The notes under the pieces were generated by a model. The model made no database searches and had not been told where the DNA came from. It saw nothing but the letters and a program-made list of their open reading frames with translations. Positions 6,712 through 48,637 of a DNA stretch of 64,000 nt are shown piece by piece. Made by a program: the position numbers and the translations under genes. This DNA comes from a virus. Each line of letters begins with the position of its first letter. Position 1 is the first letter of the stretch. Where the stretch lies: positions 32,001-96,000 of the IMG/VR virus record IMGVR_UViG_3300047476_001426; one strand, given 5' to 3'.

Positions 6712-6735
6712 AATGATATTTATACTATAAAAGGA

Positions 6736-34671: not shown

Positions 34672-36585
34672 TTAAACTTTTACAAATTGTTTAGTTAATT
34701 GTTTATTATAATTATGCAAAACCAAGTAATAATTACCGGCTGCGGATGATGTCATATCGATTTGTTTATATGCAATTTTCTCTGATGAATTGGTTGTAAC
34801 AGAACCGATGTTTTTCACCAATTGACCTCTTACATCATAAATTGAACCGTTCATTTCCATGTTTGGATTTGGGAATCTAATTTCAATTTCAAACCATCCA
34901 CTTGTTGGGTTTGGTCTTATTGATGCTGTAATCTCATCAATTGATTGGTCTGTAGGTGGTGCCATTTTATACATGATAACCGCAACACTACTAACCAAAT
35001 CAATATTTAAATGGTCACCCTTCTCATCTGATGCATCCATTAATTGTCTCACATAAATGTTACTTACAATATCATTACCACCAATTGGTGAGAATTTAAG
35101 TTTAAATGGTGTTGATTGACCTATTAAACCATCTTTCATCTGATTGTTCATCCCACCGAATCTAATTGTACCATTAGAAGCATCGTGAGTAACATATTGT
35201 AACCATGGACCACCATTAAAATTTGATATAATCTCCTCAAACTTAACTTTAGTTTTATCGTATTTCATTTCAAACTGTAAACCATAATTGTTATCACCAT
35301 TTGTGTTAACATTGAATGGTACATATAATGGTTGACTTCCTGATGCTGAAGTATTAGGTATTTCAACATCTAATTTACCTTTAAACACCGCCTTAGCAAC
35401 TAATACCCCCGATGAGTTCCATACTCTTGATGAATACGTTCTGTCTACGTCACCTTGAATAAAGTACTTAATGTTTACTGTTTTATTAACTAAACCAACA
35501 CTATCCGTGATAAAATTGGTTGCGGTTAAATGGTTTGGCCAATCATTCCATTGAGTTGAACCTAAAACTAAAGAATCATAAACACTCGCGTGGAAAGTTC
35601 TAATCATTGTTGTGGTATCTATCTTTTTCATACCACTTACGTTCGCGTAAATTAGATATGGGTCACCACCATCCAATTTTCCGTTTTGGTTCATATCACC
35701 AATAAGGTATGCCAAACCATTTTTTAAGTATTGTTGTCCAAATCCTTGGTTAACGTCTGTAATTGTGTATTCATCATATGTCTTTACAGCGTCTGATATT
35801 GTAACCGCGTAATCTCTGAAGACTTCCATACTATCTGCTGGAAATCTAACCAATAATTTATATTTGGTATTTTTATCTACATTGTTTAATGAGTAGTTAC
35901 CAGCGGTGTCACATAAAGAAGATGAAACAAATGTGCCTGTATTATACTTTGTACATATTACTGTTGGTCTTCTACCGGCCAATTTCATTGTTGGAGGTAA
36001 TTCAACAACACCACTAATCACCAAGTTACCCAAAAGTTCAAGGTGCATATCTTGTACATTTAAGATTGCGATGTTATCACCAATTGTAGAACCGTCATAC
36101 TTAAACATTCTTGCCCAGTTAATTTCAACACTGTCAGCATCAAAGTTTGATTCTACGTCATTAATAATAAATTTGTTATGTATTAAAAATGTGTCTTGTG
36201 TTATTTGAGAACCACTTGAAAGTACCAAGAAATTTCTTGCCACAGTATAGTTGGTATCACTTGTGTATGAATACAAACCTGTACCTGAACTGTAACTTGA
36301 ATATTTGTAATTGTTAAAGAATTTTATCGAAAGTGCTGGAGTCATGGTACTCACAGTTGGGTCAACAGTAGTTGATACGTGAGTAAAAAGTTGTTTCCTA
36401 TATTGGAAATCAACTTGGAATGTTCTCACATCAACCGCGGATGCTGGTGTGTATTTAAACACAACATCTAAAGTATCACCTCTTTTGATAGTTTTATACG
36501 CAACGGGGTTACCTATTTCAGGTGTTTGTGAAAACGCCATTGTCGTGACAAATAAAGTAATTAGGGATAAAATTATTTTTTTCAT
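34672..36585 (-). CDS. T9SS-type cargo protein with cohesin-like and dockerin-like domains
   Basis: Signal peptide; cohesin-like FQVDFQY and LQFEMKYD...GTIRFGG; GDMNQNGKLDGGD; C-terminal IRPNPTSG..IYDVRGQLV..IDM...GNYYL..KQFVK (T9SS type A CTD). Confidence 0.8.
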   Translation of the reverse strand: MKKIILSLITLFVTTMAFSQTPEIGNPVAYKTIKRGDTLDVVFKYTPASAVDVRTFQVDFQYRKQLFTHVSTTVDPTVSTMTPALSIKFFNNYKYSSYSSGTGLYSYTSDTNYTVARNFLVLSSGSQITQDTFLIHNKFIINDVESNFDADSVEINWARMFKYDGSTIGDNIAILNVQDMHLELLGNLVISGVVELPPTMKLAGRRPTVICTKYNTGTFVSSSLCDTAGNYSLNNVDKNTKYKLLVRFPADSMEVFRDYAVTISDAVKTYDEYTITDVNQGFGQQYLKNGLAYLIGDMNQNGKLDGGDPYLIYANVSGMKKIDTTTMIRTFHASVYDSLVLGSTQWNDWPNHLTATNFITDSVGLVNKTVNIKYFIQGDVDRTYSSRVWNSSGVLVAKAVFKGKLDVEIPNTSASGSQPLYVPFNVNTNGDNNYGLQFEMKYDKTKVKFEEIISNFNGGPWLQYVTHDASNGTIRFGGMNNQMKDGLIGQSTPFKLKFSPIGGNDIVSNIYVRQLMDASDEKGDHLNIDLVSSVAVIMYKMAPPTDQSIDEITASIRPNPTSGWFEIEIRFPNPNMEMNGSIYDVRGQLVKNIGSVTTNSSEKIAYKQIDMTSSAAGNYYLVLHNYNKQLTKQFVKV

Positions 36586-37079
36586 AGTATTAATTTGTTA
36601 ATTAAGGTTTGAGTTGTTTTCTTTAATGCCGAACTAGCAGATTGTTGATTGAATTTACCACCCTCATCAATCATAATAGTTGAGGTTGAAATTTCAGTGG
36701 ATTTACCCTCTGAGAATTCCTGTTTAATTTTTTTATCACCTTTATATAGGACACCTTTCATTCTTATAACGGTAGTTGTCTTGTCTTCGTGAAAAATACT
36801 AACCCCCGAGTTAGTGGTTACAATATCAAAAAATATGAGCTCGACTTTAATTTTATAGTCCGCCTTATTTTTATCTGTAATCAGAATTAAACTGTCCTGT
36901 TCGTTTATGATTTCTTCTATTATATTTTTTACACCAAAAGCCAAATTTTTATTTTCGGTAAACGGACCAATCTTAATGTTGTTGATTACTGTGTCAACAA
37001 CAATAGTTTGTGCGTTCAGATTGGAAAACCCAAATGATATTAAAAAAAATAGTAATATGATTGGCAGTCTTGTCATCAC
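36582..37079 (-). CDS. Secreted protein, CsgG/LpoB-like fold candidate
   Basis: Signal peptide; LAFGVKNIIEE...KADYKIKVELIFF pattern similar to 33036-33821. Confidence 0.45.
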   Translation of the reverse strand: MMTRLPIILLFFLISFGFSNLNAQTIVVDTVINNIKIGPFTENKNLAFGVKNIIEEIINEQDSLILITDKNKADYKIKVELIFFDIVTTNSGVSIFHEDKTTTVIRMKGVLYKGDKKIKQEFSEGKSTEISTSTIMIDEGGKFNQQSASSALKKTTQTLINKLIL

Positions 37080-37116
37080 AAAAAAGAAAAAAACGGGGCA
37101 CTGAGCCCCGTATTAA

Positions 37117-37371
37117 TTACTCAGATACTGAATCGTCTGATTTTTTCTTATGTGAGAACTTGTCTAAAGTATCTGCACCCATTCCAATGGCAGTAATTAC
37201 CATTACCGCATTTACCAATTCTTCTGATGGTTTAATGTCACCATGTGTAAAAGAGTTTGCCATCATGGTTCCGCAAAGGAAAAGTGCACCTAATAGTGCG
37301 ATTACCGGTTTGATTGAAGTTGACCCTCTTTCATCTTTGAATAGGTCAATAATCCATTTTTTAAAGTTCAT
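37117..37371 (-). CDS. Small two-TM membrane protein (holin-like)
   Basis: 84 aa, two hydrophobic segments, charged C-terminus. Confidence 0.5.
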   Translation of the reverse strand: MNFKKWIIDLFKDERGSTSIKPVIALLGALFLCGTMMANSFTHGDIKPSEELVNAVMVITAIGMGADTLDKFSHKKKSDDSVSE

Positions 37372-37492
37372 AGTTGTAATTTAGTTTAGTTTTATTATTT
37401 GGTTTATTATAAATACCTCGGCAATCGAGATTGTCATATATATTATTTTAAAAAAAATTTTAACTTTTCTTGTTTTTTCGAATACTTATTAG

Positions 37493-37500
37493 TATCTTTG
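37493..37500 (+). promoter_or_regulatory. Bacteroidota sigma70 -7 element driving tRNA cluster 1
   Basis: TATCTTTG, 30 nt upstream of leader ORF 1. Confidence 0.75.
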
Positions 37501-37530
37501 TAAAAGATTTCAAAAATTAAATAAATTTCG

Positions 37531-37620
37531 ATGATACGTTCAACACATACAATGTCGTTTACAATCTGTTCAAAATGGGCGGAGGTAGCTGATATTTGCA
37601 TGTCCCGAGGTGTCTTCTAA
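37531..37620 (+). CDS. Leader peptide 1 (MIRSTHTMSFTICSKWAEVADICMSRGVF)
   Basis: 29-codon ORF between promoter and terminator; its 3' end carries a perfect antiterminator strand. Confidence 0.75.
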   Translation: MIRSTHTMSFTICSKWAEVADICMSRGVF

Positions 37621-37647
37621 GTTGTTTAATTTTAAAAACGATAAAAG

Positions 37648-37677
37648 AAACCTCGGGAGAAATCTCGAGGTTTTTTT
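37648..37677 (+). terminator. Attenuator terminator 1
   Basis: AAACCTCGGGA-GAAA-TCTCGAGGTTT followed by TTTT. Confidence 0.85.
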
Positions 37678-37684
37678 GTTTTAT

Positions 37685-37754
37685 GGGCCTGATGTCAACG
37701 GCAGACCGTCTGATTTGCAATCAGAACGATTGGGTTCGATTCCCACAGTGTCCA
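37685..37754 (+). tRNA. tRNA-Ala(TGC), irregular acceptor stem
   Basis: TCTGA-TTTGCAA-TCAGA anticodon arm, GGTTCGATTCC T arm, G3:U70-like pair; bulge in acceptor stem. Confidence 0.65.
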
Positions 37755-37760
37755 CAAAGA

Positions 37761-37783
37761 TGTTCTTTGACATATTGGTTTAA
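37761..37783 (+). promoter_or_regulatory. boxA-like antitermination element, copy 1
   Basis: TGTTCTTTGACATATTGGTTTAA, identical to 40682-40704. Confidence 0.6.
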
Positions 37784-37786
37784 TTT

Positions 37787-37860
37787 GGTACCGTAGCTCA
37801 GTTGGTAGAGCACCAGACTGAAAATCTGGGTTGTCACTGGTTCAAATCCAGTCGGTACCA
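37787..37860 (+). tRNA. tRNA-Phe(GAA)
   Basis: Full cloverleaf; CCAGA-CTGAAAA-TCTGG. Confidence 0.93.
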
Positions 37861-37962
37861 CATAGTGTTGGCTTCAAGTCCCATTAGGGAAGTACACTTA
37901 AATAAAACATACACGGGGAAAGTGTTGACTGCAGAAACAGCGAGTACCAACGAAGGGGTAAT

Positions 37963-38036
37963 GTCTTCGTAGCTCAGTTGGTTAGAGCACCTCACTTTTA
38001 ATGAGGGAGTCACGCGTTCGAGTCGCGTCGGGGACA
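37963..38036 (+). tRNA. tRNA-Lys(TTT)
   Basis: Full cloverleaf; CCTCA-CTTTTAA-TGAGG. Confidence 0.93.
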
Positions 38037-38178
38037 CAAAGGTTGATTGGGGAATGATTATGTCTATAGTTCGAGAGTGGATACTGACTGACATAATCGG
38101 AGTTTGGAGGTATTCACCGTAGTAATGCCAATCGTAAAAGGAGATGTCCACTGAACCATCTTCTCCTTTCCTTGACTT

Positions 38179-38252
38179 AGTTCCTTAGCTCAGTTGGTTA
38201 GAGCATCTGCCTTACATGCAGAGGGTCGTTGGTTCGAATCCGACAGGGACTA
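38179..38252 (+). tRNA. tRNA-Val(TAC)
   Basis: Full cloverleaf; TCTGC-CTTACAT-GCAGA. Confidence 0.93.
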
Positions 38253-38318
38253 CAATAAACTAAAAATTGCATCAATAAACAAGGTTAGTTTATCGTGGCA
38301 AAAACAAGTTTAATAAAC

Positions 38319-38389
38319 ACGGGTGTGGTGAAAGGGTATCATACCGGTCTCCAAAACCGTTGTTGGGAGTTCGAATCTCTCCACCCGTG
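38319..38389 (+). tRNA. tRNA-Trp(CCA)
   Basis: ACGGGTG/CACCCGT acceptor; CGGT-CTCCAAA-ACCG. Confidence 0.88.
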
Positions 38390-38410
38390 CAAACTTTAAA
38401 AATAAAAACA

Positions 38411-38842
38411 ATGAACAATCAAATAGGAATCGATGCCGCAAAAATAAAATTTGAGGCTGAGAAAATGAAACTAAAAGAAGAAAGGGAACGAAGGATTAAA
38501 GAGTTTTGGGAAAACGGTATACCCAAATTAAATAATCCTGAAGACGTACCAACACTTCCAAGGGTGGATGAAAAAGAATGGAAAGAATACTATGTACCAA
38601 GATTGATTGATGCTGGTGCAATCCCTAAAAAAGATTTAATCCATGGTCAGATTTATATCGGTGAACATAGAAATACAACCATAGCAAGATGGAATCAGGA
38701 AACAAACAAATTCGACCACATGAGATATAAGTTTGGTTGGGCGAAAGATGATTGTAACCATTTTGAAGATGATGATGGATTCGCATTGTTTGTCCCAATT
38801 AGATTAGGAACACAAGAAGAATGGGATGAAAGAATTAAATAA
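38411..38842 (+). CDS. Hypothetical protein in the tRNA array
   Basis: ATG at 38411 after an A-rich leader; 143 aa. Confidence 0.65.
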   Translation: MNNQIGIDAAKIKFEAEKMKLKEERERRIKEFWENGIPKLNNPEDVPTLPRVDEKEWKEYYVPRLIDAGAIPKKDLIHGQIYIGEHRNTTIARWNQETNKFDHMRYKFGWAKDDCNHFEDDDGFALFVPIRLGTQEEWDERIK

Positions 38843-38847
38843 ATGAT

Positions 38848-38921
38848 GCTCTCGTAGTTCAATGGATTAGAACATTTCACTACGGATGAAAGGGTTGGGA
38901 GTTCGAGTCTCTCCGAGAGTA
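38848..38921 (+). tRNA. tRNA-Arg(ACG)
   Basis: TTTCA-CTACGGA-TGAAA; full cloverleaf. Confidence 0.9.
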
Positions 38922-38926
38922 CAATA

Positions 38927-38998
38927 GGGTCAGTTTGGTCATGGAGGCCGGTTAGTCTGCAAAACTAACGGAGTTGGTTCGATTCCAACATTGACCTC
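38927..38998 (+). tRNA. tRNA-Cys(GCA)
   Basis: GTTAGT-CTGCAAA-ACTAAC; T arm GTTGG-TTCGATT-CCAAC; weak D arm. Confidence 0.8.
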
Positions 38999-39053
38999 AA
39001 TATAAGGTCTGAACCTAATAGTGGGGGATTATTAGGTGTGGACCTTATAATAT

Positions 39054-39128
39054 GGTAGATATAGTTCAGTTGGTTAGAACGTCTGATTGTGGTTCAGAAG
39101 GTCGTCGGTTCGAATCCGATTATTTACC
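39054..39128 (+). tRNA. tRNA-His(GTG)
   Basis: TCTGA-TTGTGGT-TCAGA; encoded G-1:C73. Confidence 0.92.
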
Positions 39129-39135
39129 CAAACAT

Positions 39136-39212
39136 TGGAATATAGCTCAATTGGTTAGAGCATTCGTCTGATACGCGAAAGGTTATAGGTTCGATTCCTA
39201 TTATTCCAACCA
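39136..39212 (+). tRNA. tRNA-Ile(GAT)
   Basis: TTCGT-CTGATAC-GCGAA; encoded CCA. Confidence 0.93.
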
Positions 39213-39217
39213 AACAT

Positions 39218-39291
39218 TGCGGGGTGGACTGGAGAGGTTCCAGCTCAGTCTCATAAGCTGAATGACGTGGGTTCGATTCCCACCCCCGCAA
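39218..39291 (+). tRNA. tRNA-Met(CAT), fMet-like body
   Basis: TGCGGGG/CCCCGCA acceptor; TCAGT-CTCATAA-GCTGA (lacks the three G-C pairs of classical initiators). Confidence 0.8.
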
Positions 39292-39460
39292 CTTTTTCAT
39301 TGAACATTTTGAAATATGGAATTTCATGTTTATATTTTAATTGTTCGTTTGTTCTTTGAAATAAAAATATGGATATAACTAGGGTCGAGCCAGATTTTGC
39401 CACGGTTATGTCAAGGGTTGGAAGGACCAGAGCTGGCCGTGACTACTCCAACCCACTATT

Positions 39461-39534
39461 GCCTCCTTAGCTCAGTTGGCCAGAGCGCCTCACTTGTAAT
39501 GAGGATGTCGTTGGTTCGAATCCGACAGGAGGCT
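39461..39534 (+). tRNA. tRNA-Thr(TGT)
   Basis: CCTCA-CTTGTAA-TGAGG. Confidence 0.93.
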
Positions 39535-39631
39535 CTGCAGGGTTTTCGGTGTAAAGGGTGTCAAAACCCACCTGAGCAAAACCTAACATATGTCCACTAT
39601 GTGTTAGGGTAATGTGGATAAAACCGAAATT

Positions 39632-39703
39632 GGTCTCATAGTTAAACGGCTATAATGCAGCCCTGTCACGGCTGAGTTCGGGGTTCGATTCCCCGTGGGA
39701 CCG
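39632..39703 (+). tRNA. tRNA-Asp(GTC)
   Basis: CAGCC-CTGTCAC-GGCTG. Confidence 0.93.
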
Positions 39704-39994
39704 CAATGAGTAAGAGATACTCAGGAAGATTGGCTACATTCTGTAAAAAAGTAGTGGTGGTAAAAAAATCCTCGACCTTAATGAGGTATCGATTTGGATA
39801 AAACGGTAGCAAGACTCTGCACCGCCGACGTATAGAGTTGACAGGTTTTTATGTGGTAAGACACTAATGAAAAAGACCCAATGAAGGAGGACGCTTTTAA
39901 GCAATATGTTCAGAGAGCGTTGGGGGATATGGTTCTCGAAACAGTGAGAGAAACCCGTTAAAATCTACTTATTGTAATCTCAGATAAGGAAATT

Positions 39995-40080
39995 GGAGAG
40001 TTGGCAGAGCTGGTTGAACGCGGCGGTCTTGAAAACCGTTTTACTGAAAGGTAACGGGGGTTCGAATCCCTCACTCTCCG
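39995..40080 (+). tRNA. tRNA-Ser(TGA)
   Basis: GCGGT-CTTGAAA-ACCGT with a long variable arm. Confidence 0.92.
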
Positions 40081-40088
40081 CAAATTAT

Positions 40089-40163
40089 GGCCCTTTCGTC
40101 TATCGGTTAGGACAGGTCCCTTTCACGGACCAGAGACGGGTTCGATTCCCGTAGGGGCTACCA
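40089..40163 (+). tRNA. tRNA-Glu(TTC)
   Basis: GGTCC-CTTTCAC-GGACC; encoded CCA. Confidence 0.92.
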
Positions 40164-40179
40164 AACAAAAAAAACCAAT

Positions 40180-40422
40180 ATGTTAGAGAAAATTTTAGAA
40201 CAATATGAGAGTGAGGAAATCTTAATTGCCGATGGATTTGATAATGCGGTTATAGGTATTGATGAATCCACAATGAGATTAATTTATTCCGTTGAGAAGT
40301 GTATAAACATCCTAATGGAACAAGGAATGGATATGACAGAAGCGGTTGAATACTTTGATTTCAACGTCTCAGGTTCATATGTTGGTGAGAAGACTCCAAT
40401 ATGGTGTGATGATTTATTTTAA
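40180..40422 (+). CDS. Small acidic hypothetical phage protein
   Basis: 80 aa; ADGFDNAVIG...YSVEKC..EAVEYFDFN..GSYVGE.TP pattern common in phages. Confidence 0.7.
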   Translation: MLEKILEQYESEEILIADGFDNAVIGIDESTMRLIYSVEKCINILMEQGMDMTEAVEYFDFNVSGSYVGEKTPIWCDDLF

Positions 40423-40462
40423 AAAAAAATTTAAAATTATTTGTAAATAAAAAAACTTTTCG

Positions 40463-40470
40463 TATCTTTG
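40463..40470 (+). promoter_or_regulatory. Bacteroidota sigma70 -7 element driving tRNA cluster 2
   Basis: TATCTTTG with upstream TTTG (-33 element). Confidence 0.8.
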
Positions 40471-40487
40471 TGATAGTTATTTAAGAA

Positions 40488-40592
40488 ATGATGAACTTGG
40501 TATACATACAACAACCGTTGAACAATCCACTTAGTGGTAATGGGAGAGGTATATATTTATGTGACCCAAGTTCGGAGTTAGTCAAATTATAA
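40488..40592 (+). CDS. Leader peptide 2 (MMNLVYIQQPLNNPLSGNGRGIYLCDPSSELVKL)
   Basis: 34-codon ORF between promoter and terminator; carries antiterminator strand AAGTTCGG. Confidence 0.75.
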   Translation: MMNLVYIQQPLNNPLSGNGRGIYLCDPSSELVKL

Positions 40593-40616
40593 GGATAAGA
40601 TAACCTACTATAGATG

Positions 40617-40649
40617 ACCCGAACTTAAATAAAAAAGTTCGGGTTTTTT
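40617..40649 (+). terminator. Attenuator terminator 2
   Basis: ACCCGAACTT-loop-AAGTTCGGGT followed by TTTTT. Confidence 0.85.
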
Positions 40650-40681
40650 GTTTTTAGAGTTTTTTGTTTTTATATTTGAAG

Positions 40682-40704
40682 TGTTCTTTGACATATTGGT
40701 TTAA
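40682..40704 (+). promoter_or_regulatory. boxA-like antitermination element, copy 2
   Basis: Exact 23-nt repeat of 37761-37783. Confidence 0.6.
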
Positions 40705-40710
40705 GTAGTT

Positions 40711-40795
40711 GCCGAGGTGATGGAATGGTAGACATGAGGGACTTAAAATCCCTTGGACAGTAATGTTCGTGTGGGTTCGACTCCCATCCTCGGTA
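40711..40795 (+). tRNA. tRNA-Leu(TAA)
   Basis: AGGGA-CTTAAAA-TCCCT, long variable arm. Confidence 0.92.
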
Positions 40796-40800
40796 CAAAA

Positions 40801-40999
40801 GAAACTTCCTTACAGAAGGTGATAATGCTTCACTGAAAGGACTACTGACTTCCAAGTGGGTCGCAACCACAATCGGAAGGTACGACACGGCTCAGTAGAC
40901 TCTGTAACGGACCCTGCTCTATGGTGCACACATAACAGGTGATGGGGAACAAACCATCGGTAAAATCTAAACCCACGGTGAGCGTGGAAGGAATGTTTC
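40801..40999 (+). ncRNA. Unclassified multibranch structured RNA
   Basis: End-to-end stem GAAAC.TTCCTT/AAGGAA.GTTTC; internal TTACAGA/TCTGTAA, CTACTGA/TCAGTAG and several hairpins. Confidence 0.55.
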
Positions 41000-41009
41000 T
41001 TTTTTTAAT

Positions 41010-41083
41010 GTCTCCGTAGCTCAGCTGGATAGAGCAACAGCCTTCTAAGCTGTGGGTCATTGGTTCGAATCCAATCGGGGATA
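41010..41083 (+). tRNA. tRNA-Arg(TCT)
   Basis: ACAGC-CTTCTAA-GCTGT. Confidence 0.93.
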
Positions 41084-41085
41084 CT

Positions 41086-41225
41086 AAGATAGTGGTCACT
41101 CTCACAATGAAAGTCGACAAAGTAGTTGTGAGGTTCATAGTGTTCAGCACCCTCGGCCAGTGCACTGATAAAACTCAGAAGAAGCCGTTAAGATTGGAGC
41201 GAGACGGGTACTCCATCACTATCTT
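41086..41225 (+). ncRNA. Unclassified structured RNA
   Basis: Closing stem AAGATAGTG/CACTATCTT; internal CTCACAA/TTGTGAG and TGGAG/CTCCA hairpins. Confidence 0.5.
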
Positions 41226-41230
41226 TTTTT

Positions 41231-41305
41231 CGGGATGTAGCGTAGTCCGGTTATCGCGCATGGTTTGGGACCATGAGGTCGCAGGTTCGAATCCTGCTAT
41301 CCCGA
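41231..41305 (+). tRNA. tRNA-Pro(TGG)
   Basis: CATGG-TTTGGGA-CCATG. Confidence 0.93.
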
Positions 41306-41355
41306 CAAAGTCCGAGAGTAATTAACTCGGTACCTGAGAGGTTCGAAACTCTCGA

Positions 41356-41449
41356 TTGATTATGGTGTAATGGCGCACAGCAGAACGGAGTACGGGCATC
41401 GGCCTCGAAAGGGGACGCAGGATTAAGGTTCGAATCCTTATTAATCAGC
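41356..41449 (+). ncRNA. tRNA-like RNA with anticodon arm replaced
   Basis: Acceptor TTGATTA/TAATCAG, D arm GTGT/GCAC, T arm TAAGG-TTCGAAT-CCTTA; about 45-nt non-canonical middle. Confidence 0.6.
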
Positions 41450-41651
41450 AAGCCGTCTTTTTTCATACTCGCACCGATGAGGGGGACTGTTGAGACGTTA
41501 AAGTAACAGTGTAAAGCAATCGGGGGTTTATCCAAGTTACCCACAAACTGGGGTCGTTTTCCTTACCGAAGGAGTTTCCCGACCAATAAACTGAAACTCA
41601 AACGATAGAAAAAAGTAGGGACACATGGGGAAGCTTTAACCCGTCCCGAAA

Positions 41652-41750
41652 TAGTCAGGTGAGTTGGTACTCACGGAGGGTCGTTAAATGGAAAGATACC
41701 ACATCGACGAGGTGGTAAATGCCGAACAGGTTCGAGTCCTGTCCTGACTA
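41652..41750 (+). ncRNA. tRNA-like RNA, TAGTCAGG class, copy 1
   Basis: TAGTCAGG/CCTGACTA stem, GTGAG/CTCAC arm, ACAGG-TTCGAGT-CCTGT; no 7-nt anticodon loop. Confidence 0.6.
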
Positions 41751-41823
41751 CTAAGTAGAGAGAACCGTGAGTTTGCGGATGGAAACAACCATAAAACGAG
41801 CATACGTCATACTCTACTTAACA

Positions 41824-41918
41824 TAGTCAGGTTTGGTACAAGGTCGGTTCGAGTCCGATGGAAGGTCATGGATGTCGGGTAGCTCCCTGTAGAGAGGTTC
41901 GATTCCTCTCCTGACTAC
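41824..41918 (+). ncRNA. tRNA-like RNA, TAGTCAGG class, copy 2 (two T arms)
   Basis: Same terminal stem; TCGG-TTCGAGT-CCGA and AGAGG-TTCGATT-CCTCT. Confidence 0.6.
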
Positions 41919-41995
41919 GATACGGTGTTGACCTGTCCGCGACCGAAATGTATACAAAACAGTGGAGGGTGACAAATAGGGAGAGACCTGTACAT

Positions 41996-42136
41996 GATTA
42001 AGTGGCGAAATTGGTTTACGCGCTGGTCAGTACCCAAAAGAGTGTTGAATGGGGAAAACTGGTGGACATACTACAGACACGAGTAGTAGGAGATTATGTC
42101 TTTAAATCCGTACAGGTTCGAATCCTGTCTTAATCT
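41996..42136 (+). ncRNA. tRNA-like RNA with a long insertion in place of the anticodon arm
   Basis: GATTAAG/CTTAATC acceptor, Leu-type D arm GCGAAATTGGTTTACGC, ACAGG-TTCGAAT-CCTGT. Confidence 0.6.
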
Positions 42137-42263
42137 CGAATGTGGTTCGATTCCACTCGTTAACTGAGGTTTTGGAAAGTAGTCCAATGGAGGTACACAC
42201 TCCACTTAGAAATAAGGTAGAATGATGGAGAACAGTTTGGAGGTGTGGGAAGACACACAAAAT

Positions 42264-42335
42264 TCCTCGATAGCTCAGCGGTAGAGCAAACGGCTGTTAA
42301 CCGTTAGGTCCCAAGTTCGAATCTTGGTCGGGGAG
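42264..42335 (+). tRNA. tRNA-Asn(GTT)
   Basis: AACGG-CTGTTAA-CCGTT. Confidence 0.93.
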
Positions 42336-42411
42336 CAAAAAAATCGTTGATGGAAACATCGAAGGTGTACAATACTAGTAACACCGTAGGTTTGGCGATG
42401 TCCTACAATAG

Positions 42412-42492
42412 GCCTTGGTGGTGGAATGGTAGACACGCTAGTCTTAGGAACTAGTGGCGAAAGTCGTGTCGGTTCGAGTCCGACCTGAGGTA
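42412..42492 (+). tRNA. tRNA-Leu(TAG)
   Basis: CTAGT-CTTAGGA-ACTAG. Confidence 0.92.
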
Positions 42493-42497
42493 CAAAT

Positions 42498-42601
42498 TCA
42501 TTCTTAGTGTTATGAGGTAAAACACTTTGACTCTCACATCGCCTGGTTAGTACTGACCCGAATGTGAGACGAGTAAGTTGGTTCGAATCCAACAGAATGG
42601 A
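42498..42601 (+). ncRNA. tRNA-like RNA with an extended hairpin replacing the anticodon arm
   Basis: TCATTCT/AGAATGG acceptor, GTGTT/AACAC D arm, TCTCACAT/ATGTGAGA hairpin, GTTGG-TTCGAAT-CCAAC. Confidence 0.65.
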
Positions 42602-42663
42602 CAACCCGTCGAAAGCTCATGTTGGTCCGAGTGAGATGGAAACGCGGATATCGGACCCGTTAT

Positions 42664-42745
42664 TGGAAGGTGGGTGAGTGGTTAAAACCGGCAGACTGTA
42701 AATCTGCTCCCATTGGGTACGGGGGTTCGAATCCCTCCCTTCCAA
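42664..42745 (+). tRNA. tRNA-Tyr(GTA)
   Basis: GCAGA-CTGTAAA-TCTGC, variable arm. Confidence 0.92.
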
Positions 42746-42758
42746 CAAAAATATCATT

Positions 42759-43310
42759 ATGAAAAAAAATAAAATAATTTCAGAGATGTTATCAAACATC
42801 ACACCTGAAATGAAAGAAAAATGGAAACAAGAGAGAATTGAACGTAAAAACAAATTAACACCCGAATATCAACTCGGATATTATGTTGGTTTGGAAATTG
42901 TTCACAGATATCTACCAACTCTTTCTACTGATATGATACAATCTCGCACCGTGATTGAAGTTTCTGAAGAAGATACTTTAGAAAATGAAAGATTGGATAC
43001 CGAATGGTATACAACAACAAAACACGGTGGAGAATGGAATGGTGTTGATGAAAACGGCAATAAAGAGAAATGGGATTTATACCATCAACACAATAAAATG
43101 TTGGGAAGGAAATACCTACCAAATCCATTGGAGTGTTACATGAGTTTGTTAAATGTTCAAAACATGGATGAATTTAAAAAAGGTTTAAGGTTCGCATTGT
43201 GGGATTGTGATATGTGTTCATACAATATTGAACCTGAAAACATAAAAATTTACGATGATGAACAAGCCATGTTTACTATTATCGAATTTCAATTAGATTC
43301 AGTGGTGTAG
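42759..43310 (+). CDS. Hypothetical protein in the tRNA array
   Basis: 183-aa ORF; its TAG stop overlaps the 5' end of tRNA-Ile(TAT). Confidence 0.65.
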   Translation: MKKNKIISEMLSNITPEMKEKWKQERIERKNKLTPEYQLGYYVGLEIVHRYLPTLSTDMIQSRTVIEVSEEDTLENERLDTEWYTTTKHGGEWNGVDENGNKEKWDLYHQHNKMLGRKYLPNPLECYMSLLNVQNMDEFKKGLRFALWDCDMCSYNIEPENIKIYDDEQAMFTIIEFQLDSVV

Positions 43311-43377
43311 CTCAATTGGTGAGAGCAGGACTCTTATACAGTCAAGGTTATGGGTTCAAATCCCGTCATCACTACCA
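43301..43377 (+). tRNA. tRNA-Ile(TAT)
   Basis: GACT-CTTATAC-AGTC anticodon arm; encoded CCA. Confidence 0.85.
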
Positions 43378-43428
43378 ATTATCGGTTAAATAACCGATAA
43401 AATAAATTATCGTCGATTTGAACGATAT

Positions 43429-43502
43429 GGTCCCTTAGCTCAGTTGGTTAGAGCAACTGACTCATAATCAGTAGGCCCACGGTTCAAGCCCGTGAGGGAC
43501 CA
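43429..43502 (+). tRNA. tRNA-Ile2 or Met (CAT)
   Basis: ACTGA-CTCATAA-TCAGT; body resembles bacterial lysidine-type Ile2. Confidence 0.85.
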
Positions 43503-43527
43503 CAGAGATATTTATATATAAAAAACT

Positions 43528-43980
43528 ATGGGAATAGAATTAAAAAAGAAAAAACAACTTATCGAAAGATTAAATAAAAGGTTGTTATCGGAAGCCGAAA
43601 TGGAATGTCCAAAACCAACTCAAGATTTGGAATTAAACACCAAAAACAGAGATAAATCAATAAAGGCAGATTATATTAAATATGGTCCACTTAATATTGA
43701 TGAACCGGGAGATTATTGGGAAATGGTTGCATCCGATTGGGATACAACTGTTGAGGCAGCAAAAAAATCACTATGTGGTAATTGTGTTGCTTTTGATATT
43801 TCACCAAGAATGGATGAATGTATGCCGGGTTCTGTTTCTGATGACAGCGGTAGATTAGGTTACTGTTGGATGCATCATTTTAAATGTCATTCAGCAAGAA
43901 CATGTAAAACATGGGCTAAAGGTGGACCTATTACCGAAGACACGGTTTCATACGAATGGCAAGAAAAAAATAAAGAATAA
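43528..43980 (+). CDS. Cys-rich hypothetical phage protein
   Basis: 150 aa; CGNCVAF, GYCWMHHFKCHSARTC; preceded by TATTTATA. Confidence 0.7.
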   Translation: MGIELKKKKQLIERLNKRLLSEAEMECPKPTQDLELNTKNRDKSIKADYIKYGPLNIDEPGDYWEMVASDWDTTVEAAKKSLCGNCVAFDISPRMDECMPGSVSDDSGRLGYCWMHHFKCHSARTCKTWAKGGPITEDTVSYEWQEKNKE

Positions 43981-44043
43981 ATGTAGTCGTACCCTTAACT
44001 CCAAAACTCACAACTGAGTCTCTGTTATGGGAAGGCTACTCCC

Positions 44044-44116
44044 GCGGAAATAGCTCAGTTGGTAGAGCATCACCTTGCCAAGGTGAGGGTCGCGAGTTCG
44101 AGTCTCGTTTTCTGCT
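44044..44116 (+). tRNA. tRNA-Gly(GCC)
   Basis: TCACC-TTGCCAA-GGTGA. Confidence 0.93.
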
Positions 44117-44185
44117 CTAAGTAAACCTTAAAAAGGGCCCTTCCGTTGGTACGACAACGGCTTGTTGAGCCCGGGTTTACTTTTT

Positions 44186-44257
44186 GCGAATATCGTATAA
44201 TGGTCATTACTTCAGACTTCCAATCTGAAGATGTCAGTTCGATTCTGACTATTCGCT
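44186..44257 (+). tRNA. tRNA-Gly(TCC)
   Basis: TCAGA-CTTCCAA-TCTGA. Confidence 0.92.
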
Positions 44258-44310
44258 CAATCATTATAGTGGTCACTAAATCGGGTTAGTGAAAATCTAT
44301 TTGATATTAT

Positions 44311-44381
44311 TGTCCTGTGGTGTAACGGCAGCACATCTGGTTTTGGTCCAGAGAATTGAGGTTCGAATCCTTGCGGGACAA
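44311..44381 (+). tRNA. tRNA-Gln(TTG)
   Basis: TCTGG-TTTTGGT-CCAGA. Confidence 0.92.
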
Positions 44382-44439
44382 CAAAATTTTTAAATTATGA
44401 AAAAAGAAAGAGACTTCTATTAGGTAACACTAATAGAAT

Positions 44440-44709
44440 ATGTCAAAACACAGAAACAGAGCTAAGCTCAAAAACGCAGAATGTGGTAGGGATTACCACC
44501 TAATTTCTTTAAACGAATGGTATCCCCTTTATTGGGATGAGGGGTACAACTTCTATCCACGATGGAGAAGAGGTTACAAAAATCCCAACAAGACAATTCC
44601 AATCTTTAAAGTACGTGAGTACAGAACTTGGAAGTACAACAGAAAAAACCAATATGTTGAGAGGAAAGTTACCCAAGTTGGTGAAGGGGACGGTTTGCTA
44701 AACCGTTAG
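44440..44709 (+). CDS. Small basic hypothetical protein (3' end overlaps tRNA-Ser)
   Basis: Arg/Lys/Trp-rich ORF ending in YRTWKYNRKNQY-type motif common in phages. Confidence 0.5.
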   Translation: MSKHRNRAKLKNAECGRDYHLISLNEWYPLYWDEGYNFYPRWRRGYKNPNKTIPIFKVREYRTWKYNRKNQYVERKVTQVGEGDGLLNR

Positions 44710-44750
44710 GTCGAGTAATCGGCGCGAGGGTTCGAGCCCCTCACTTTCCG
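44663..44750 (+). tRNA. tRNA-Ser(GCT)
   Basis: ACGGT-TTGCTAA-ACCGT, long variable arm. Confidence 0.92.
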
Positions 44751-44781
44751 CAAAATACTTATAAGTAGAATAATATGTAAT

Positions 44782-45243
44782 ATGACAAAATTTAGAACAT
44801 TGTACGGAACACCCATAACTGACGTTATTGGTTACATCAAAGATTATTTGGTTGATAAAACTGATGTTGAGATATTAATTGGTTCGGATTCACAATCATT
44901 TAGTAATTCAAAAACAGTTTACGGGGTGGTTATTGCTCTTTACACAACAGGTAAAGGTGCACACGTACTATGTACTAAAGATATCACACCATTTGAAAAA
45001 GACACATCAAGTAGATTAATGACCGAAGTTTGGAAAGCTGTTGAAGTTGCCGAACATTTGAGAAATAATGGTTTACCAAAAGCCACATGGATTGATATAG
45101 ATTTAAATCCCGACCCAAGATATAAATCAAACAAAGTTTTGAGACAAGCAGTTGGTTTGGTTGAAGGTATGGGATACAAGGTAAGATACAAACACGCAGG
45201 TGCTATGGTGACTTACAGTGCAAACCATTTGGTAAGAATTTAA
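44782..45243 (+). CDS. YkuK-like RNase H-fold protein
   Basis: ILIGSDSQ, RLMTEV, WIDIDLN..SN..GLVEGMGY pattern. Confidence 0.7.
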   Translation: MTKFRTLYGTPITDVIGYIKDYLVDKTDVEILIGSDSQSFSNSKTVYGVVIALYTTGKGAHVLCTKDITPFEKDTSSRLMTEVWKAVEVAEHLRNNGLPKATWIDIDLNPDPRYKSNKVLRQAVGLVEGMGYKVRYKHAGAMVTYSANHLVRI

Positions 45244-45310
45244 AAAAAAGATAAGAGGGCTTGTTTTTTTAAAAAAGTCCTTTTATCTTTGTAATGTAAT
45301 ATTTATAGTC

Positions 45311-45652
45311 ATGAGAAAAAACTAGATTAACAGACTTGTAGTCGTAACCCGTAAAGACTTAAAACCCGGGTACCAAATTGCACAATCGGGACATGCAATC
45401 TCTCAGTTCATTTTAGAACACCCCGAATTGTCGAAACGATGGAACAACAGTTATCTGATTTCATTATCCATCGATTCAGAAGAAAAATTACAACAATTAC
45501 TTTTTAGGTTAGAAGATTCAGGAATACCTGTATCTCATTTCATTGAACCCGATATCGGGAATCAATTAACATCTATTTGCTTTCTCGAAACCGAGGAAAC
45601 AAAAAGATTCACATCATCATTGCCTTTATCCTTAAAGGAATATAATAAATAA
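45311..45652 (+). CDS. Pth2-like peptidyl-tRNA hydrolase with in-frame TAG at codon 5
   Basis: MRKN*INRLVVVTRKDLKPGYQIAQSGHA...EPDIGNQLTSI; VVVTRKDL..G..IAQ..HA is the Pth2 N-terminal catalytic motif. Confidence 0.75.
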
Positions 45653-45672
45653 ACAATTTAATCTTAAAAATT

Positions 45673-45927
45673 ATGAAGTAGATTAACAAAAAATGTGAAA
45701 TTATTTTTCACTTCAACAAGAAACACTTGGAAAATCCGACGATTCCAATGTGGGTTGTGAAATGTCGGGGCGACACTTATTATGTTCATCATGTTGATGT
45801 CTCACCGGGTGTGGGATTCTCAACAAAAGAAACTCCCGATAACCCTCATACCAAAGGGAGTATAAAATTCAAAGCAAATTTGGAAATTGAGGAAAACAAT
45901 AACATAATAACAGCTAAAATTTTTTAA
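45673..45927 (+). CDS. Hypothetical protein with in-frame TAG at codon 3
   Basis: MK*INKKCEIIFHFNKKHLENPTIPMWVVK...; A-rich leader before the ATG; frame continuous with ORF 45727-45927. Confidence 0.65.
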
Positions 45928-45929
45928 AA

Positions 45930-46268
45930 ATGAAAAATACAAAACACAACCCAACAATGATGATTAAATCATCTTTCTCGAACAAGATTCATAATCTTTT
46001 AGGTATCAAACACAAACCATATTCAAAAGAGTGGTTTGAAGGTATGAAACAAAGAAGAGAATTGACTAATGAAGAAAAGTCTAAACTTTTTGATGAAATT
46101 ATGAAGGTGTATGTTGAAACATCCGACGAATTGGTAAACTATCGTAAAGATAGGAGATTAAAAAAATGGGTCAACAAAAAACGTTTAGAAAGAGGATATG
46201 TCCCAAAGAAAAAAACAAAAAAAGAAGATTATGAAAAAAATCTTCAAAATGATTTGGAGATATCTTAA
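45930..46268 (+). CDS. Basic hypothetical protein
   Basis: 112-aa ORF coupled to the previous gene. Confidence 0.55.
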   Translation: MKNTKHNPTMMIKSSFSNKIHNLLGIKHKPYSKEWFEGMKQRRELTNEEKSKLFDEIMKVYVETSDELVNYRKDRRLKKWVNKKRLERGYVPKKKTKKEDYEKNLQNDLEIS

Positions 46269-46385
46269 TTAATATCTACTTTTGAATTGTGATTGAAAAG
46301 TGACAGTGACAAATAGACCAAGTGGGGCACACGTAAAATTGTATCAGTCGAAAGTCGAGGTGATAGACCACCATCAATCACAAAC

Positions 46386-46457
46386 GGTCTCGTGGTGTAG
46401 CGGTAACATTACGGTCTCTAAAACCGATAGTCACGGGTTCAAATCCCGTCGGGACCA
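46386..46457 (+). tRNA. Amber suppressor tRNA (anticodon CTA)
   Basis: GGTCTCG/CGGGACC acceptor; CGGT-CTCTAAA-ACCG anticodon arm (CTA at 46418-46420); ACGGG-TTCAAAT-CCCGT. Confidence 0.88.
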
Positions 46458-46564
46458 CAACAAAAAAAAATATTTTTAAAAAAAATTACAAAAATACTTG
46501 TTTTTTAAAAAAAGTTTTGTATCTTTGTACCACAACAATAAATAATACATTTAATACGACATTT

Positions 46565-48637
46565 ATGACAACAAGAAATTTAGTTGCATTTCAAAAGAAT
46601 TTGGTGTGTTCACCAAACGACGGTCAAGATAACAGAATCGCTGTAGCAACCGTACAATCCCACCTAATGCAATGGGGTTACATGTTAGACGAAGACGCTT
46701 TCTTCGCATTAGCCAAATCAGATTTATCGTTTATTCAAAACTTCAATGATGAAGTGTTGAATCATTTGAAAAATGTAATGGGAGGTAAACGTAATTACCA
46801 ACCTTTATATAAAAACTTCCCACAAGAAGTGATGGTTATGTCCGACTTCGAATTGTACATGAATGCAATCATTCATTATTGGAGTAACGGTCAATGGGAA
46901 CCATCTACCCATACTTACGAAAAAGAAATCAAGTTTGAGAAAATCAAATACAACTTGATTAAGTATGGTACTTCGGAAAGATTCTCAAAAATCTTCACTG
47001 ACTTAGTGTCAATAAACACATCGTTAACTCCTCAAGACCTTGAGATTGTTAAATGGTTTGTTGAGAGCGGTGAAACATTAGTCTTCCCTGACACAATTCC
47101 ATTCAAAGAGAATTTGTGTACATTGGCGGCAATGGGAATCTCGGGATTACCAGTTAAGACTTCAACCGATGTGTTAAGAATCGCCGTTCATCTTTCAGGT
47201 GGTGATATTAGTTTACCAAAAGTTCCTCAAAAGGAAATTAGGGCAAGTGTATGGACCACCCAAAGGATTACGAATCCTGAAAGAGAAAAGTTTAAATTCA
47301 AGAAATTCTCTCGTAAAGAGAGAAAATACATCTTGGGTTTACTGGAGAACACAAACTGTGACCCACGTGAAATGGTTTTAAGAGACCAACGTTGGGTACG
47401 TTTAGGTGAAATATTACACCCGGGTGAATATAAAAACCAATTCCCTAAGTCTTTCGAGGCCTTCAACAAAATCCGAAACGAGAAAGTTAAATCTTGGTTC
47501 GCACTTGTTAACGAAGGTTTCAATAAAGGATTAGAGAATGGTTTGAGAGTTTTGTCTCAAAGACCTGGTGAGTTCTCTCGTAGAATGGATTGGTTGGTTC
47601 GTACATATCCAAAAGATATTGAACTGATTATGAAGTTCTTCGGAGAAGCGGTAAAAGGTACATCAAACAAAGTATTGTTTGAAGTTTACACTCACTTTGA
47701 AAATCGTACTGAACCTATGGATAATAGGTCTATTATGATAAAAGGGGCGAGAAAACGTACCACATTACCATCACTACCAGCAATCCCTAAAGAGATTGTG
47801 GAAACCATCCACTCTAAATTATTCGAAACACTTAGAGATAAGTTTTCGGTAATGGAATCTTTAGGTAACTGTTGGATTGATGAGGAATTGAAAAAAATTC
47901 CTTTACCAACCAACATGAGAAGTATGAACTTCTCAACTAAACCAACAATCAGAGGTCAAAGAGTTCCACTCGATAACCCTGATGCAAAAGTTATCAGACC
48001 GTTTGTTCATTGGATGGATAAACGTGGTAGCGAAGACTTGGATTTAAGTGTTACGTTTGTTGGTGAAAAGGTGTCAGAAGTACTATCTTTCAGTAACTTG
48101 AGAGTTGGTAAATCTTGTCACTCAGGGGATGTGAGACATAGACAGGGTCCTTGTGCCGAGTACATCGACATTGATATTCAAGATGCATTGAAAAGAGGAT
48201 TCAAATATGCAGTCATTGATGTGAGAAACTTCAATGGAGGTACTTTGAGTTCACTTGAAACGTCTTTTGGTATCATGGAACGAGAACACCCTGAATCAAA
48301 CAAAACATGGTTACCTGAAACAATTTCAAATTGTCAATCATTGGAATCAGCGTCGTCAAACACATTGATTTCTATTATTGACCTTGAAACTAAGGAGTAC
48401 ATCATGTTGGATATTGATTCATCAGGTTTCGTTACCGCAAGAGGTGACTTCAAACACACTCTTAAAGTGATTCAACAATACGCTGAATTACCAAAAGTAA
48501 GTGTTTATGACCTTATTCTTCTACACGTAGAAGGTCGAGGAAAACAAGTTACCCTTGATGAAAATGTCGACGTACACTTCAAGTACGAGGACTTCTGTTA
48601 CTCTTATGAGGAAACAGGAAAATTAATGGGTGTGTAA
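46565..48637 (+). CDS. Large alpha-helical protein with C-terminal TerD-like domain (Ro/TROVE-like candidate)
   Basis: ATG at 46565 after a TATCTTTG promoter (46520); EDLDLSV..HSGDV..AEYIDID TerD-type motifs; N-terminal helical region unassigned. Confidence 0.6.
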   Translation: MTTRNLVAFQKNLVCSPNDGQDNRIAVATVQSHLMQWGYMLDEDAFFALAKSDLSFIQNFNDEVLNHLKNVMGGKRNYQPLYKNFPQEVMVMSDFELYMNAIIHYWSNGQWEPSTHTYEKEIKFEKIKYNLIKYGTSERFSKIFTDLVSINTSLTPQDLEIVKWFVESGETLVFPDTIPFKENLCTLAAMGISGLPVKTSTDVLRIAVHLSGGDISLPKVPQKEIRASVWTTQRITNPEREKFKFKKFSRKERKYILGLLENTNCDPREMVLRDQRWVRLGEILHPGEYKNQFPKSFEAFNKIRNEKVKSWFALVNEGFNKGLENGLRVLSQRPGEFSRRMDWLVRTYPKDIELIMKFFGEAVKGTSNKVLFEVYTHFENRTEPMDNRSIMIKGARKRTTLPSLPAIPKEIVETIHSKLFETLRDKFSVMESLGNCWIDEELKKIPLPTNMRSMNFSTKPTIRGQRVPLDNPDAKVIRPFVHWMDKRGSEDLDLSVTFVGEKVSEVLSFSNLRVGKSCHSGDVRHRQGPCAEYIDIDIQDALKRGFKYAVIDVRNFNGGTLSSLETSFGIMEREHPESNKTWLPETISNCQSLESASSNTLISIIDLETKEYIMLDIDSSGFVTARGDFKHTLKVIQQYAELPKVSVYDLILLHVEGRGKQVTLDENVDVHFKYEDFCYSYEETGKLMGV

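Follow-up and report, generated by a model that had tools for sequence, protein, structure and literature searches.

Leader-peptide attenuators and a phage tRNA locus

In the leader attenuators of enterobacteria (ilvGMEDA, responding to Ile, Leu and Val; thr, responding to Thr and Ile; trpL; hisL; leuL; and pheL), a promoter-proximal short open reading frame (ORF) is followed by an intrinsic terminator. Four segments of the leader RNA form mutually exclusive 1:2, 2:3 and 3:4 pairings; the position of the ribosome on diagnostic codons decides among them, and more than one amino acid can be sensed by a single leader. A unit that appears to be built, and to work, along the same lines lies ahead of a block of transfer RNA (tRNA) genes in a phage, within a 64,000-nucleotide stretch of DNA (the window: positions 32,001 to 96,000 of IMG/VR virus record IMGVR_UViG_3300047476_001426, which comprises 136,485 bases). 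This unit, leader 2, is the subject here, along with leader 1, its counterpart ahead of a second tRNA block. On the sequence evidence set out below, leader 2 is best read as an attenuator of transcription, of the ribosome-mediated (leader-peptide) kind, controlling tRNA block 2 in a phage of Bacteroidota, a reading to which we give a probability of roughly 0.8.

The enterobacterial leaders regulate biosynthetic enzymes, whereas the phage unit would regulate tRNA genes. They carry runs of codons for one to three amino acids; leader 2 carries one to four codons for each of 12 tRNAs. Unlike the enterobacterial leaders, those of the phage separate isoacceptor boxes (AGA from CGN, AGY from TCN, and ATA from ATY), are phage-borne, follow promoters of the Bacteroidota type, have a boxA element behind them, and bear no similarity to the leader families of Rfam.

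Attenuation of pheST and the T-box riboswitches of synthetase genes resemble the phage unit in that the supply of a decoding component is fed back on its own synthesis through a leader terminator. However, pheST senses one amino acid and controls a synthetase; the phage unit would sense translation speed over many codons, and its products are tRNAs. T-boxes bind uncharged tRNA directly and are untranslated, whereas the phage leader would be read by translation. A third point of comparison is boxA, the NusB/NusE site of ribosomal RNA (rrn) operons: a 17-nt phage element is identical to one found between tRNA-Ala and 23S rRNA in Bacteroidota, and both stand in a long untranslated stable-RNA transcript. 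The phage copy, unlike that in rrn, has an attenuator immediately upstream and tRNAs, not rRNA, downstream; its binding of Nus factors is a prediction.

Phage tRNA genes usually are viewed as constitutive, serving either as codon-usage helpers or as spares against tRNA-cleaving defences. To our knowledge, hardly anything has been reported on the control of their expression. A search of the full-text literature found no account of leader-peptide control of tRNA genes. New here are the target, tRNA genes; the sensor, a codon checklist with one entry per tRNA; and the phage context coupled to boxA.

Anatomy of leader 2

The leader 2 unit lies between an 80-codon ORF and tRNA block 2:

40180-40422: 80-codon ORF between the two tRNA blocks, matching a PHROG of unknown function
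40440-40470, plus strand: promoter P1 of leader 2 (−33 TTTG at 40440-40443; 19-nt spacer; −7 box TATCTTTG at 40463-40470)
40488-40592, plus strand: leader ORF 2, 34 codons and TAA, starting 17 nt past the −7 box; the sensor zone is roughly codons 3-24
40492-40508, plus strand: region 1, the anti-antiterminator strand, partner of region 2 in folds of the untranslated leader
40566-40584, plus strand: region 2, the antiterminator strand, with core AAGTTCGG at 40568-40575, within codons 27-30
40617-40655, plus strand: intrinsic terminator 2, comprising region 3 (5' arm ACCCGAACTT, 40617-40626), an 8-nt loop, region 4 (3' arm AAGTTCGGGT, 40635-40644) and a T-run
40672-40679, plus strand: candidate second promoter P2, −7 box TATATTTG, with a possible −33 TTTG at 40649-40652
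40683-40699, plus strand: boxA-type element of block 2, GTTCTTTGACATATTGG, 11 nt ahead of tRNA-Leu
40711-44751, plus strand: tRNA block 2, with 12 tRNAs (Leu-taa, Arg-tct, Pro, Asn, Leu-tag, Tyr, Ile-tat, Met, Gly-gcc, Gly-tcc, Gln and Ser-gct)

An earlier note, made from these letters alone, had named the promoter, the 34-codon ORF, the terminator, and a complement between leader and terminator 5' arm; each was found where it had been placed. The core AAGTTCGG is the exact complement of the terminator 5' arm, and the terminator, with a stem of 10-11 bp, was recovered independently by a terminator scan. P1 fits the Bacteroidota sigma-A promoter type, TTTG-N19-21-TAnnTTTG, which falls outside the coverage of the sigma-70 promoter scan made of the window. 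Its −7 box is kept in four related loci (L001, L002, L007 and L011). Leader 2 therefore displays the features by which an attenuator is recognized: a short ORF behind a promoter; a terminator before the genes; an antiterminator that can be masked; a 1:2 pairing; and diagnostic codons matched to the product. A blastn comparison of both leader regions with GenBank phages gave nothing useful.

The leader codons list the downstream tRNAs

Codon sets were assigned by standard wobble rules, with U34 assumed to read all four codons of a family box. Counted against the 12 tRNAs at 40711-44751, 21 of the 22 codons from 3 to 24 are read by block 2, reproducing the figure in the earlier note; over the whole leader the match is 27/34. 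Leader 2 contains between one and four codons for every one of the 12 tRNAs.

Leader 1 provides a complementary case:

37493-37500, plus strand: −7 box TATCTTTG of the leader 1 promoter
37531-37620, plus strand: leader ORF 1, 29 codons, with antiterminator strand TCCCGAGGT at 37602-37610
37644-37677, plus strand: terminator 1, a 9-bp core stem with a GAAA loop, then a T-run
37685-37754, plus strand: tRNA-Ala(UGC)-like element, starting 8 nt past terminator 1
37762-37778, plus strand: boxA-type element of block 1, ahead of tRNA-Phe
37787-40163, plus strand: tRNA block 1, with 13 tRNAs called by ARAGORN (Phe, Lys, Val, Trp, Arg-acg, Cys, His, Ile-gat, Met, Thr, Asp, Ser-tga and Glu)

Here 27 of 29 codons belong to the block 1 set, and all 14 decoders are represented once the tRNA-Ala-like element is included. 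The split codon boxes are partitioned between the leaders as had been claimed: AGA, AGT and ATA occur in leader 2, and CGN, TCN and ATY in leader 1, the exception being an ATA at leader 1 codon 2. The two leaders had also been described as the same architecture in unrelated sequence. The architecture is indeed the same; the surroundings are not wholly unrelated, for the promoter type and an identical 21-nt element are common to both.

A chance match had been judged very unlikely, and the statistics bear this out. Binomial probabilities are 1e-5 for leader 2 and 8e-5 for leader 1. Among 400,000 random windows of 34 or 29 codons drawn from the long ORFs of the phage, none had both the enrichment and the full tRNA coverage of either leader. 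When the 696 small ATG-initiated ORFs of the 136-kb genome were ranked, the two leaders came first and third, and among the best 10 they alone covered their own tRNA set completely.

Together with the tRNA-Ala-like element, and with the usual wobble assumed, the two blocks between them account for all 61 sense codons, ATG being the only one read by both. On those two provisos, the proposal of a two-channel system spanning nearly the whole genetic code is borne out. The tRNA-Ala-like element fills the sole gap in the code left by the two blocks. It scores 31.8 bits against the Rfam tRNA model (gathering score 29) and is called by ARAGORN at a 90% threshold, not at default settings. It is kept in L001, L002, L007, L011 and L094, and the changes to its anticodon stem in L011 are compensatory. 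Its acceptor, D and T stems are weak. In L002 and L011, a second tRNA-like element follows it.

Folding of the nascent leader

The minimum-free-energy fold of leader 2 is more stable than its shuffles (z −3.5); in it, 40492-40508 pairs with 40558-40574 and the terminator forms downstream. Leader 1 folds likewise (z −5.9). Leader 2 has all four classical segments with their alternative pairings, 1:2, 2:3 and 3:4. The duplex between region 2 and the terminator 5' arm is predicted at −15.6 kcal/mol, compared with −9.1 ± 1.9 in shuffles (z −3.35), and ends 6 nt ahead of the stop codon.

Since equilibrium folds cannot test a kinetic switch, nascent RNA was folded instead, extending to the end of the terminator 5' arm and masked up to the leading edge of the ribosome (assumed to be the A site plus 15 nt). 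Without a ribosome, region 1 of leader 2 pairs with region 2, leaving the 5' arm free. Once a ribosome is placed with its A site at or before codon 22, the antiterminator (−13.6 kcal/mol) occupies the whole 5' arm; at codon 24 it is weak, and from codon 26 on it is lost. The earlier note had placed the off-set codons at the 3' end of the leader, where the antiterminator constrains the sequence. They do in fact begin at codon 25, within the stretch over which the antiterminator disappears from the nascent fold.

The same layout in unrelated phages

With the 17-nt element as probe, unrelated phage tRNA arrays were retrieved. A script then located terminators in the 260 nt preceding a plus-strand tRNA and, from the ATG-initiated ORFs of 15-50 codons ending just before each terminator, selected the longest, a choice blind to codon information. 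The window and 195 fetched loci yielded 71 units of promoter, ORF, terminator and tRNAs, with 36 distinct peptides. Many of these leaders are unrelated in sequence to those of the window, yet list their own tRNAs. For example, the leader of L085 is rich in Thr, Gly, Tyr, Gln, Pro and Lys codons, and exactly those tRNAs lie behind it; that of L185 covers 13 of 13 tRNAs.

Across 29 units, the fraction of codons read by the leader's own block was 0.595, against 0.432 ± 0.018 when leaders and blocks were paired at random (z 9.3), and tRNA coverage was 0.916 against 0.707 ± 0.026 (z 8.0). The result persists for 16 leaders that have no 4-mer in common: codon fraction 0.584 against 0.423 ± 0.024 (z 6.7), and coverage 0.884 against 0.699 ± 0.036 (z 5.2). 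No permutation in 100,000 equalled the observed value in any of these four comparisons. Where a phage has two blocks, leaders match their own block better than the other (0.64 versus 0.20 of codons; own higher in 14/16). Moreover, the match belongs to the reading frame: within the sensor zone, the correct frame gives 0.68 and the other two give 0.35 and 0.34 (P ~1e-5).

These data bear on the idea that the ORF encodes a functional small peptide, or that the leader RNA binds tRNAs in the manner of a T-box, the terminator being incidental. The peptide is conserved within its family, and tRNA-sensing leader RNAs do exist in other bacteria. Across phages, however, the peptides are unrelated in sequence while their composition tracks the tRNA set; the signal is tied to the reading frame and to the ATG and stop boundaries, which an RNA acting without translation would not need. 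Searched against Rfam at E-values up to 1, the region 36500-47500 gave no T-box, no leader family (His_leader, Leu_leader, Thr_leader, Trp_leader or similar) and no other cis-regulatory family. We regard this explanation as very improbable.

The location of the signal within the leaders fits attenuation as well. Codons 7-27 before the stop are enriched (0.52-0.85, background about 0.42); at the two ends, over the last six codons and about the first five, enrichment is slight or absent. Its absence from the last six is what a late ribosome masking the antiterminator predicts, and constraints on initiation explain the start. In 32 units compared with dinucleotide shuffles, the duplex between leader and terminator 5' arm had a mean z of −2.66 and fell below −2 in 19; the paired leader strand mostly ends near the stop codon, within a range of about 10 nt upstream to a few nt past it. 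Of the 32 units, 14 carry a TAnnTTTG box 12-52 nt ahead of the leader ATG. The first tRNA begins 7-15 nt past the terminator in 12 of them, so that readthrough is the only visible route to it.

The codon match alone does not fix the sign of the response. Conceivably, efficient translation of the leader by phage tRNAs protects the transcript (from Rho, for instance, or through coupling), and stalling lowers expression; the boxA past the terminator shows that premature termination on an untranslated transcript matters to the phage. Against such positive feedback stands the placement of the antiterminator strand at the 3' end of the ORF, where a finishing ribosome would mask it and an upstream stall would leave it free, so that stalling gives readthrough. 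Nor would feedback from translation of the entire ORF be expected to leave the last six codons free of signal. A response of this sign thus seems quite unlikely. For leader 2 as an attenuator, as the earlier note had proposed, the pairings, the placement of the antiterminator, the in-frame match, its loss at the 3' end and the co-variation across phages are all as predicted.

Conservation among relatives

Through the neighbouring 80-codon gene, 80 IMG/VR loci were retrieved; the L093 row was left out of use in the DNA alignment of relatives. Eight loci (L001, L002 and L007-L012) have the same two tRNA blocks, although L011 lacks an intact tRNA-Leu(UAA). In these eight, both leaders are conserved as ORFs, and the ORF, region 2 and the terminator are kept. 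Within codons 6-24 of leader 2, changes are mostly synonymous (CCG/CCC, AAT/AAC and CTT/CTA) or stay in the set. In leader 1, the non-synonymous changes in mid-ORF all fall within set 1: Ser to Phe; Ala to Arg; Cys to Ala or Arg; Met to Val; an inserted Ile-Ile; and a Thr-Met swap.

The pairings are conserved too. L002 and L007 compensate in the 1:2 helix, region 1 changing T to A and region 2 A to T. L186 and L093 show a three-way compensation: a T-to-A change in the 5' arm is answered by A-to-T changes in the 3' arm and in region 2.

In L011 (6530-7310), tRNA-Leu(UAA) is split just 3' of the anticodon. The insert is a sub-threshold match to group I introns (29.2 bits, E 3e-5) and carries a 144-codon ORF with an HNH-like motif.

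A ribosomal boxA ahead of each tRNA block

An identical 21-nt element occurs at 37763-37783 and 40684-40704, just ahead of the first tRNA of each block, and the 17-nt element ahead of both blocks is GTTCTTTGACATNTTGG. In the fetched loci, 48 of 137 copies of GTTCTTTGACATNTTGG lie 6-11 nt ahead of a tRNA, 47 of these in phage arrays. A search of 185,579 species genomes for exact matches gave hits almost exclusively in Bacteroidota. In five annotated rRNA operons, it lies past tRNA-Ile and tRNA-Ala and about 80-200 nt before 23S rRNA, which is the position of the spacer boxA; operons of Pedobacter, Flavihumibacter and Niabella have it between tRNA-Ala and 23S rRNA. It also resembles the boxA of Escherichia coli. 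By sequence and position, then, the 17-nt element of both blocks is the 16S-23S spacer boxA of Bacteroidota rRNA operons, a host signal for rRNA antitermination.

As an RNA signal, boxA must be transcribed from upstream, which fits the order of promoter, attenuator, boxA and tRNAs. The 21-nt element was also considered as a promoter, and this was rejected: it is found in the Bacteroidota 16S-23S spacer and, in phages, directly abutting terminators. In some contigs of gut phages, GTTCTTTGACATNTTGG also stands ahead of unannotated, structured-looking non-coding stretches.

How the switch would work

Host RNA polymerase would start at P1, and a ribosome would translate the 34-codon leader. With fast decoding, a ribosome at the last ten codons or the stop would cover region 2 (40566-40584); regions 3 and 4 would then form the terminator, and transcription would end near 40650. 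If the ribosome were delayed at any codon up to about 22-24, region 2 would be free to pair with the emerging region 3, no terminator would form, and polymerase would read on past boxA, which probably loads host Nus antitermination factors as in rRNA operons. Antitermination of the Nus type would carry polymerase through 2.4-4 kb of largely untranslated tRNA block (4 kb for block 2). If the leader were not translated at all, region 1 would hold region 2, and transcription would terminate. Both the direction and the size of this response we infer.

Because the sensor codons are those of the 12 tRNAs behind the terminator, one to four per tRNA, the leader would act as an OR gate: shortage of any one block 2 decoder would raise output of the whole block, and sufficient supply would shut it off. 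Leader 1 would do the same for the complementary 14 decoders.

Natural triggers could include a codon-usage mismatch, starvation, or tRNA-cleaving defences. A further proposal, plausible but tentative and on balance somewhat doubtful, is that leaders 1 and 2 form a surveillance circuit for the whole decoder set, a counter-defence sensor rather than a codon-usage aid. Loss of any tRNA, through a host anticodon nuclease, another tRNA-targeting defence or the phage's own shutdown of the host, would stall a leader and turn on the replacement block. This proposal draws on the observation that a leader with single codons for each tRNA is better suited to all-or-none loss than to graded starvation.

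Four freshwater metatranscriptome assemblies contain exact pieces of the tRNA blocks. A single RNA-library contig of a relative spans the end of leader 1 and terminator 1 and continues into tRNA-Phe (37601-37831), a weak hint that may reflect DNA carry-over. The RNA libraries have no coverage of 40214-40615, which carries no conclusion.

Points against attenuation, and a candidate second promoter

Several observations weigh against this reading. The model assumes that transcription and translation are coupled in Bacteroidota. With one to four codons per tRNA, and no runs of the kind found in classical attenuators, a mild shortage may give little signal; sensitivity to severe rather than mild shortage is suggested. 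In equilibrium folds of full-length leader 2 with a ribosome mask, the terminator is always retained, so that switching must depend on kinetics, as it does in classical attenuation. In leader 1, the nascent fold without a ribosome already contains the antiterminator. The 8-nt core of region 2 ends 15 nt before the stop, and a terminating ribosome would mask just its 3' part and the extended pairing.

One sister lineage also is awkward. In L003-L006 and L021 (positions 6281-7770), block 1 is gone, and the tRNAs in 134-171 kb of contig (these contigs are 43-55% complete) are Leu-taa, Arg-tct, Met and Gly-gcc, all behind leader 2. The leader nonetheless is kept, with 18 of 22 codons in the ancestral set and just 6 of 22 matching the lineage's own tRNAs. 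The earlier note had held that retention of leader codons by relatives with rearranged tRNA clusters would speak against it, and this lineage alone, with four tRNAs and the leader retained, goes part of the way there. It has two extra out-of-set changes, Tyr to His and Pro to Thr, at codons of lost tRNAs, which hints at relaxed constraint, although the numbers are too small.

Finally, a TAnnTTTG box at the place of P2 is kept in L001, L002, L007, L011, L093 and L186 despite differing flanks. P2 may drive block 2 independently, in which case the attenuator would only add to a basal level. In the extreme version of this idea, leader, promoter and terminator make up a small gene or small RNA complete in itself, transcription of block 2 starts at P2 and runs through boxA, and the terminator merely insulates, with no attenuation. 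The box, with its possible −33 TTTG, does lie between terminator and boxA and is kept in the leader 2 family, and a terminator followed by a promoter is common in phages. Yet a P2-like box between terminator and tRNAs is present in just 6 of the 32 units in other phages; the remaining 26 lack it, 12 leave no space for it, and in leader 1 none precedes the tRNA-Ala-like element. Insulation also leaves unexplained why the codons of the downstream tRNAs are used in frame only, why unrelated leaders match their own blocks, why the 3' end of the ORF complements the terminator 5' arm, and why the match gives out at the point where the antiterminator strand would lie under a ribosome. We consider an insulated unit improbable, and attenuation the better account.

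The phage and its tRNA blocks

Three features point to Bacteroidota as the host phylum: a gene for a protein sorted by the type IX secretion system, the promoter type, and the phylum-specific rRNA signal in the phage. The protein, of 637 residues (34672-36585, minus strand), has a type IX secretion C-terminal sorting domain and an N-terminus like a signal peptide. G+C content is 29-43%, and DNA of the phage is present in many freshwater metagenomes.

ARAGORN finds 26 tRNA genes in the window, every one on the plus strand. Block 2 also holds small ORFs and a freshwater-1 RNA (RF02979; 40903-40965, between tRNA-Leu and tRNA-Arg; 72.5 bits, gathering score 72); one RNA library holds exact contigs over 40811-40976, the stretch around it. 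Among the tRNAs of both blocks lie small protein genes (38360-38842, 42759-43310, 43528-43980, 44440-44709 and 44782-45243) that would share their transcripts; some match PHROGs of unknown function, and an RNase H-like protein (PF04308) is also encoded. Between tRNA-Pro and tRNA-Asn is a 957-nt stretch (41307-42263) with no plus-strand ORF of at least 50 codons and no Rfam match, and with one 97-codon ORF on the minus strand. The two tRNAs adjoin in L001, so the stretch in the window looks like an insertion.

An amber-suppressor tRNA (anticodon CTA) stands alone at 46386-46458, in neither block. TAG ends 4 of 140 long ORFs. Recoding of TAG as the role of this tRNA is unsupported: reading TAG as sense extends just six ORFs of at least 200 residues, each with one in-frame TAG.

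Implications

If the model is correct, these would be the first tRNA genes regulated by the decoding speed of their own codons, and the leaders a natural multi-input sensor of tRNA supply. The link to boxA would bear on how such phages complete long untranslated transcripts. The codon checklist would also give a rule for predicting which tRNAs in uncultured phages share a transcription unit, and a compact part with which to detect that specific tRNAs have been lost.

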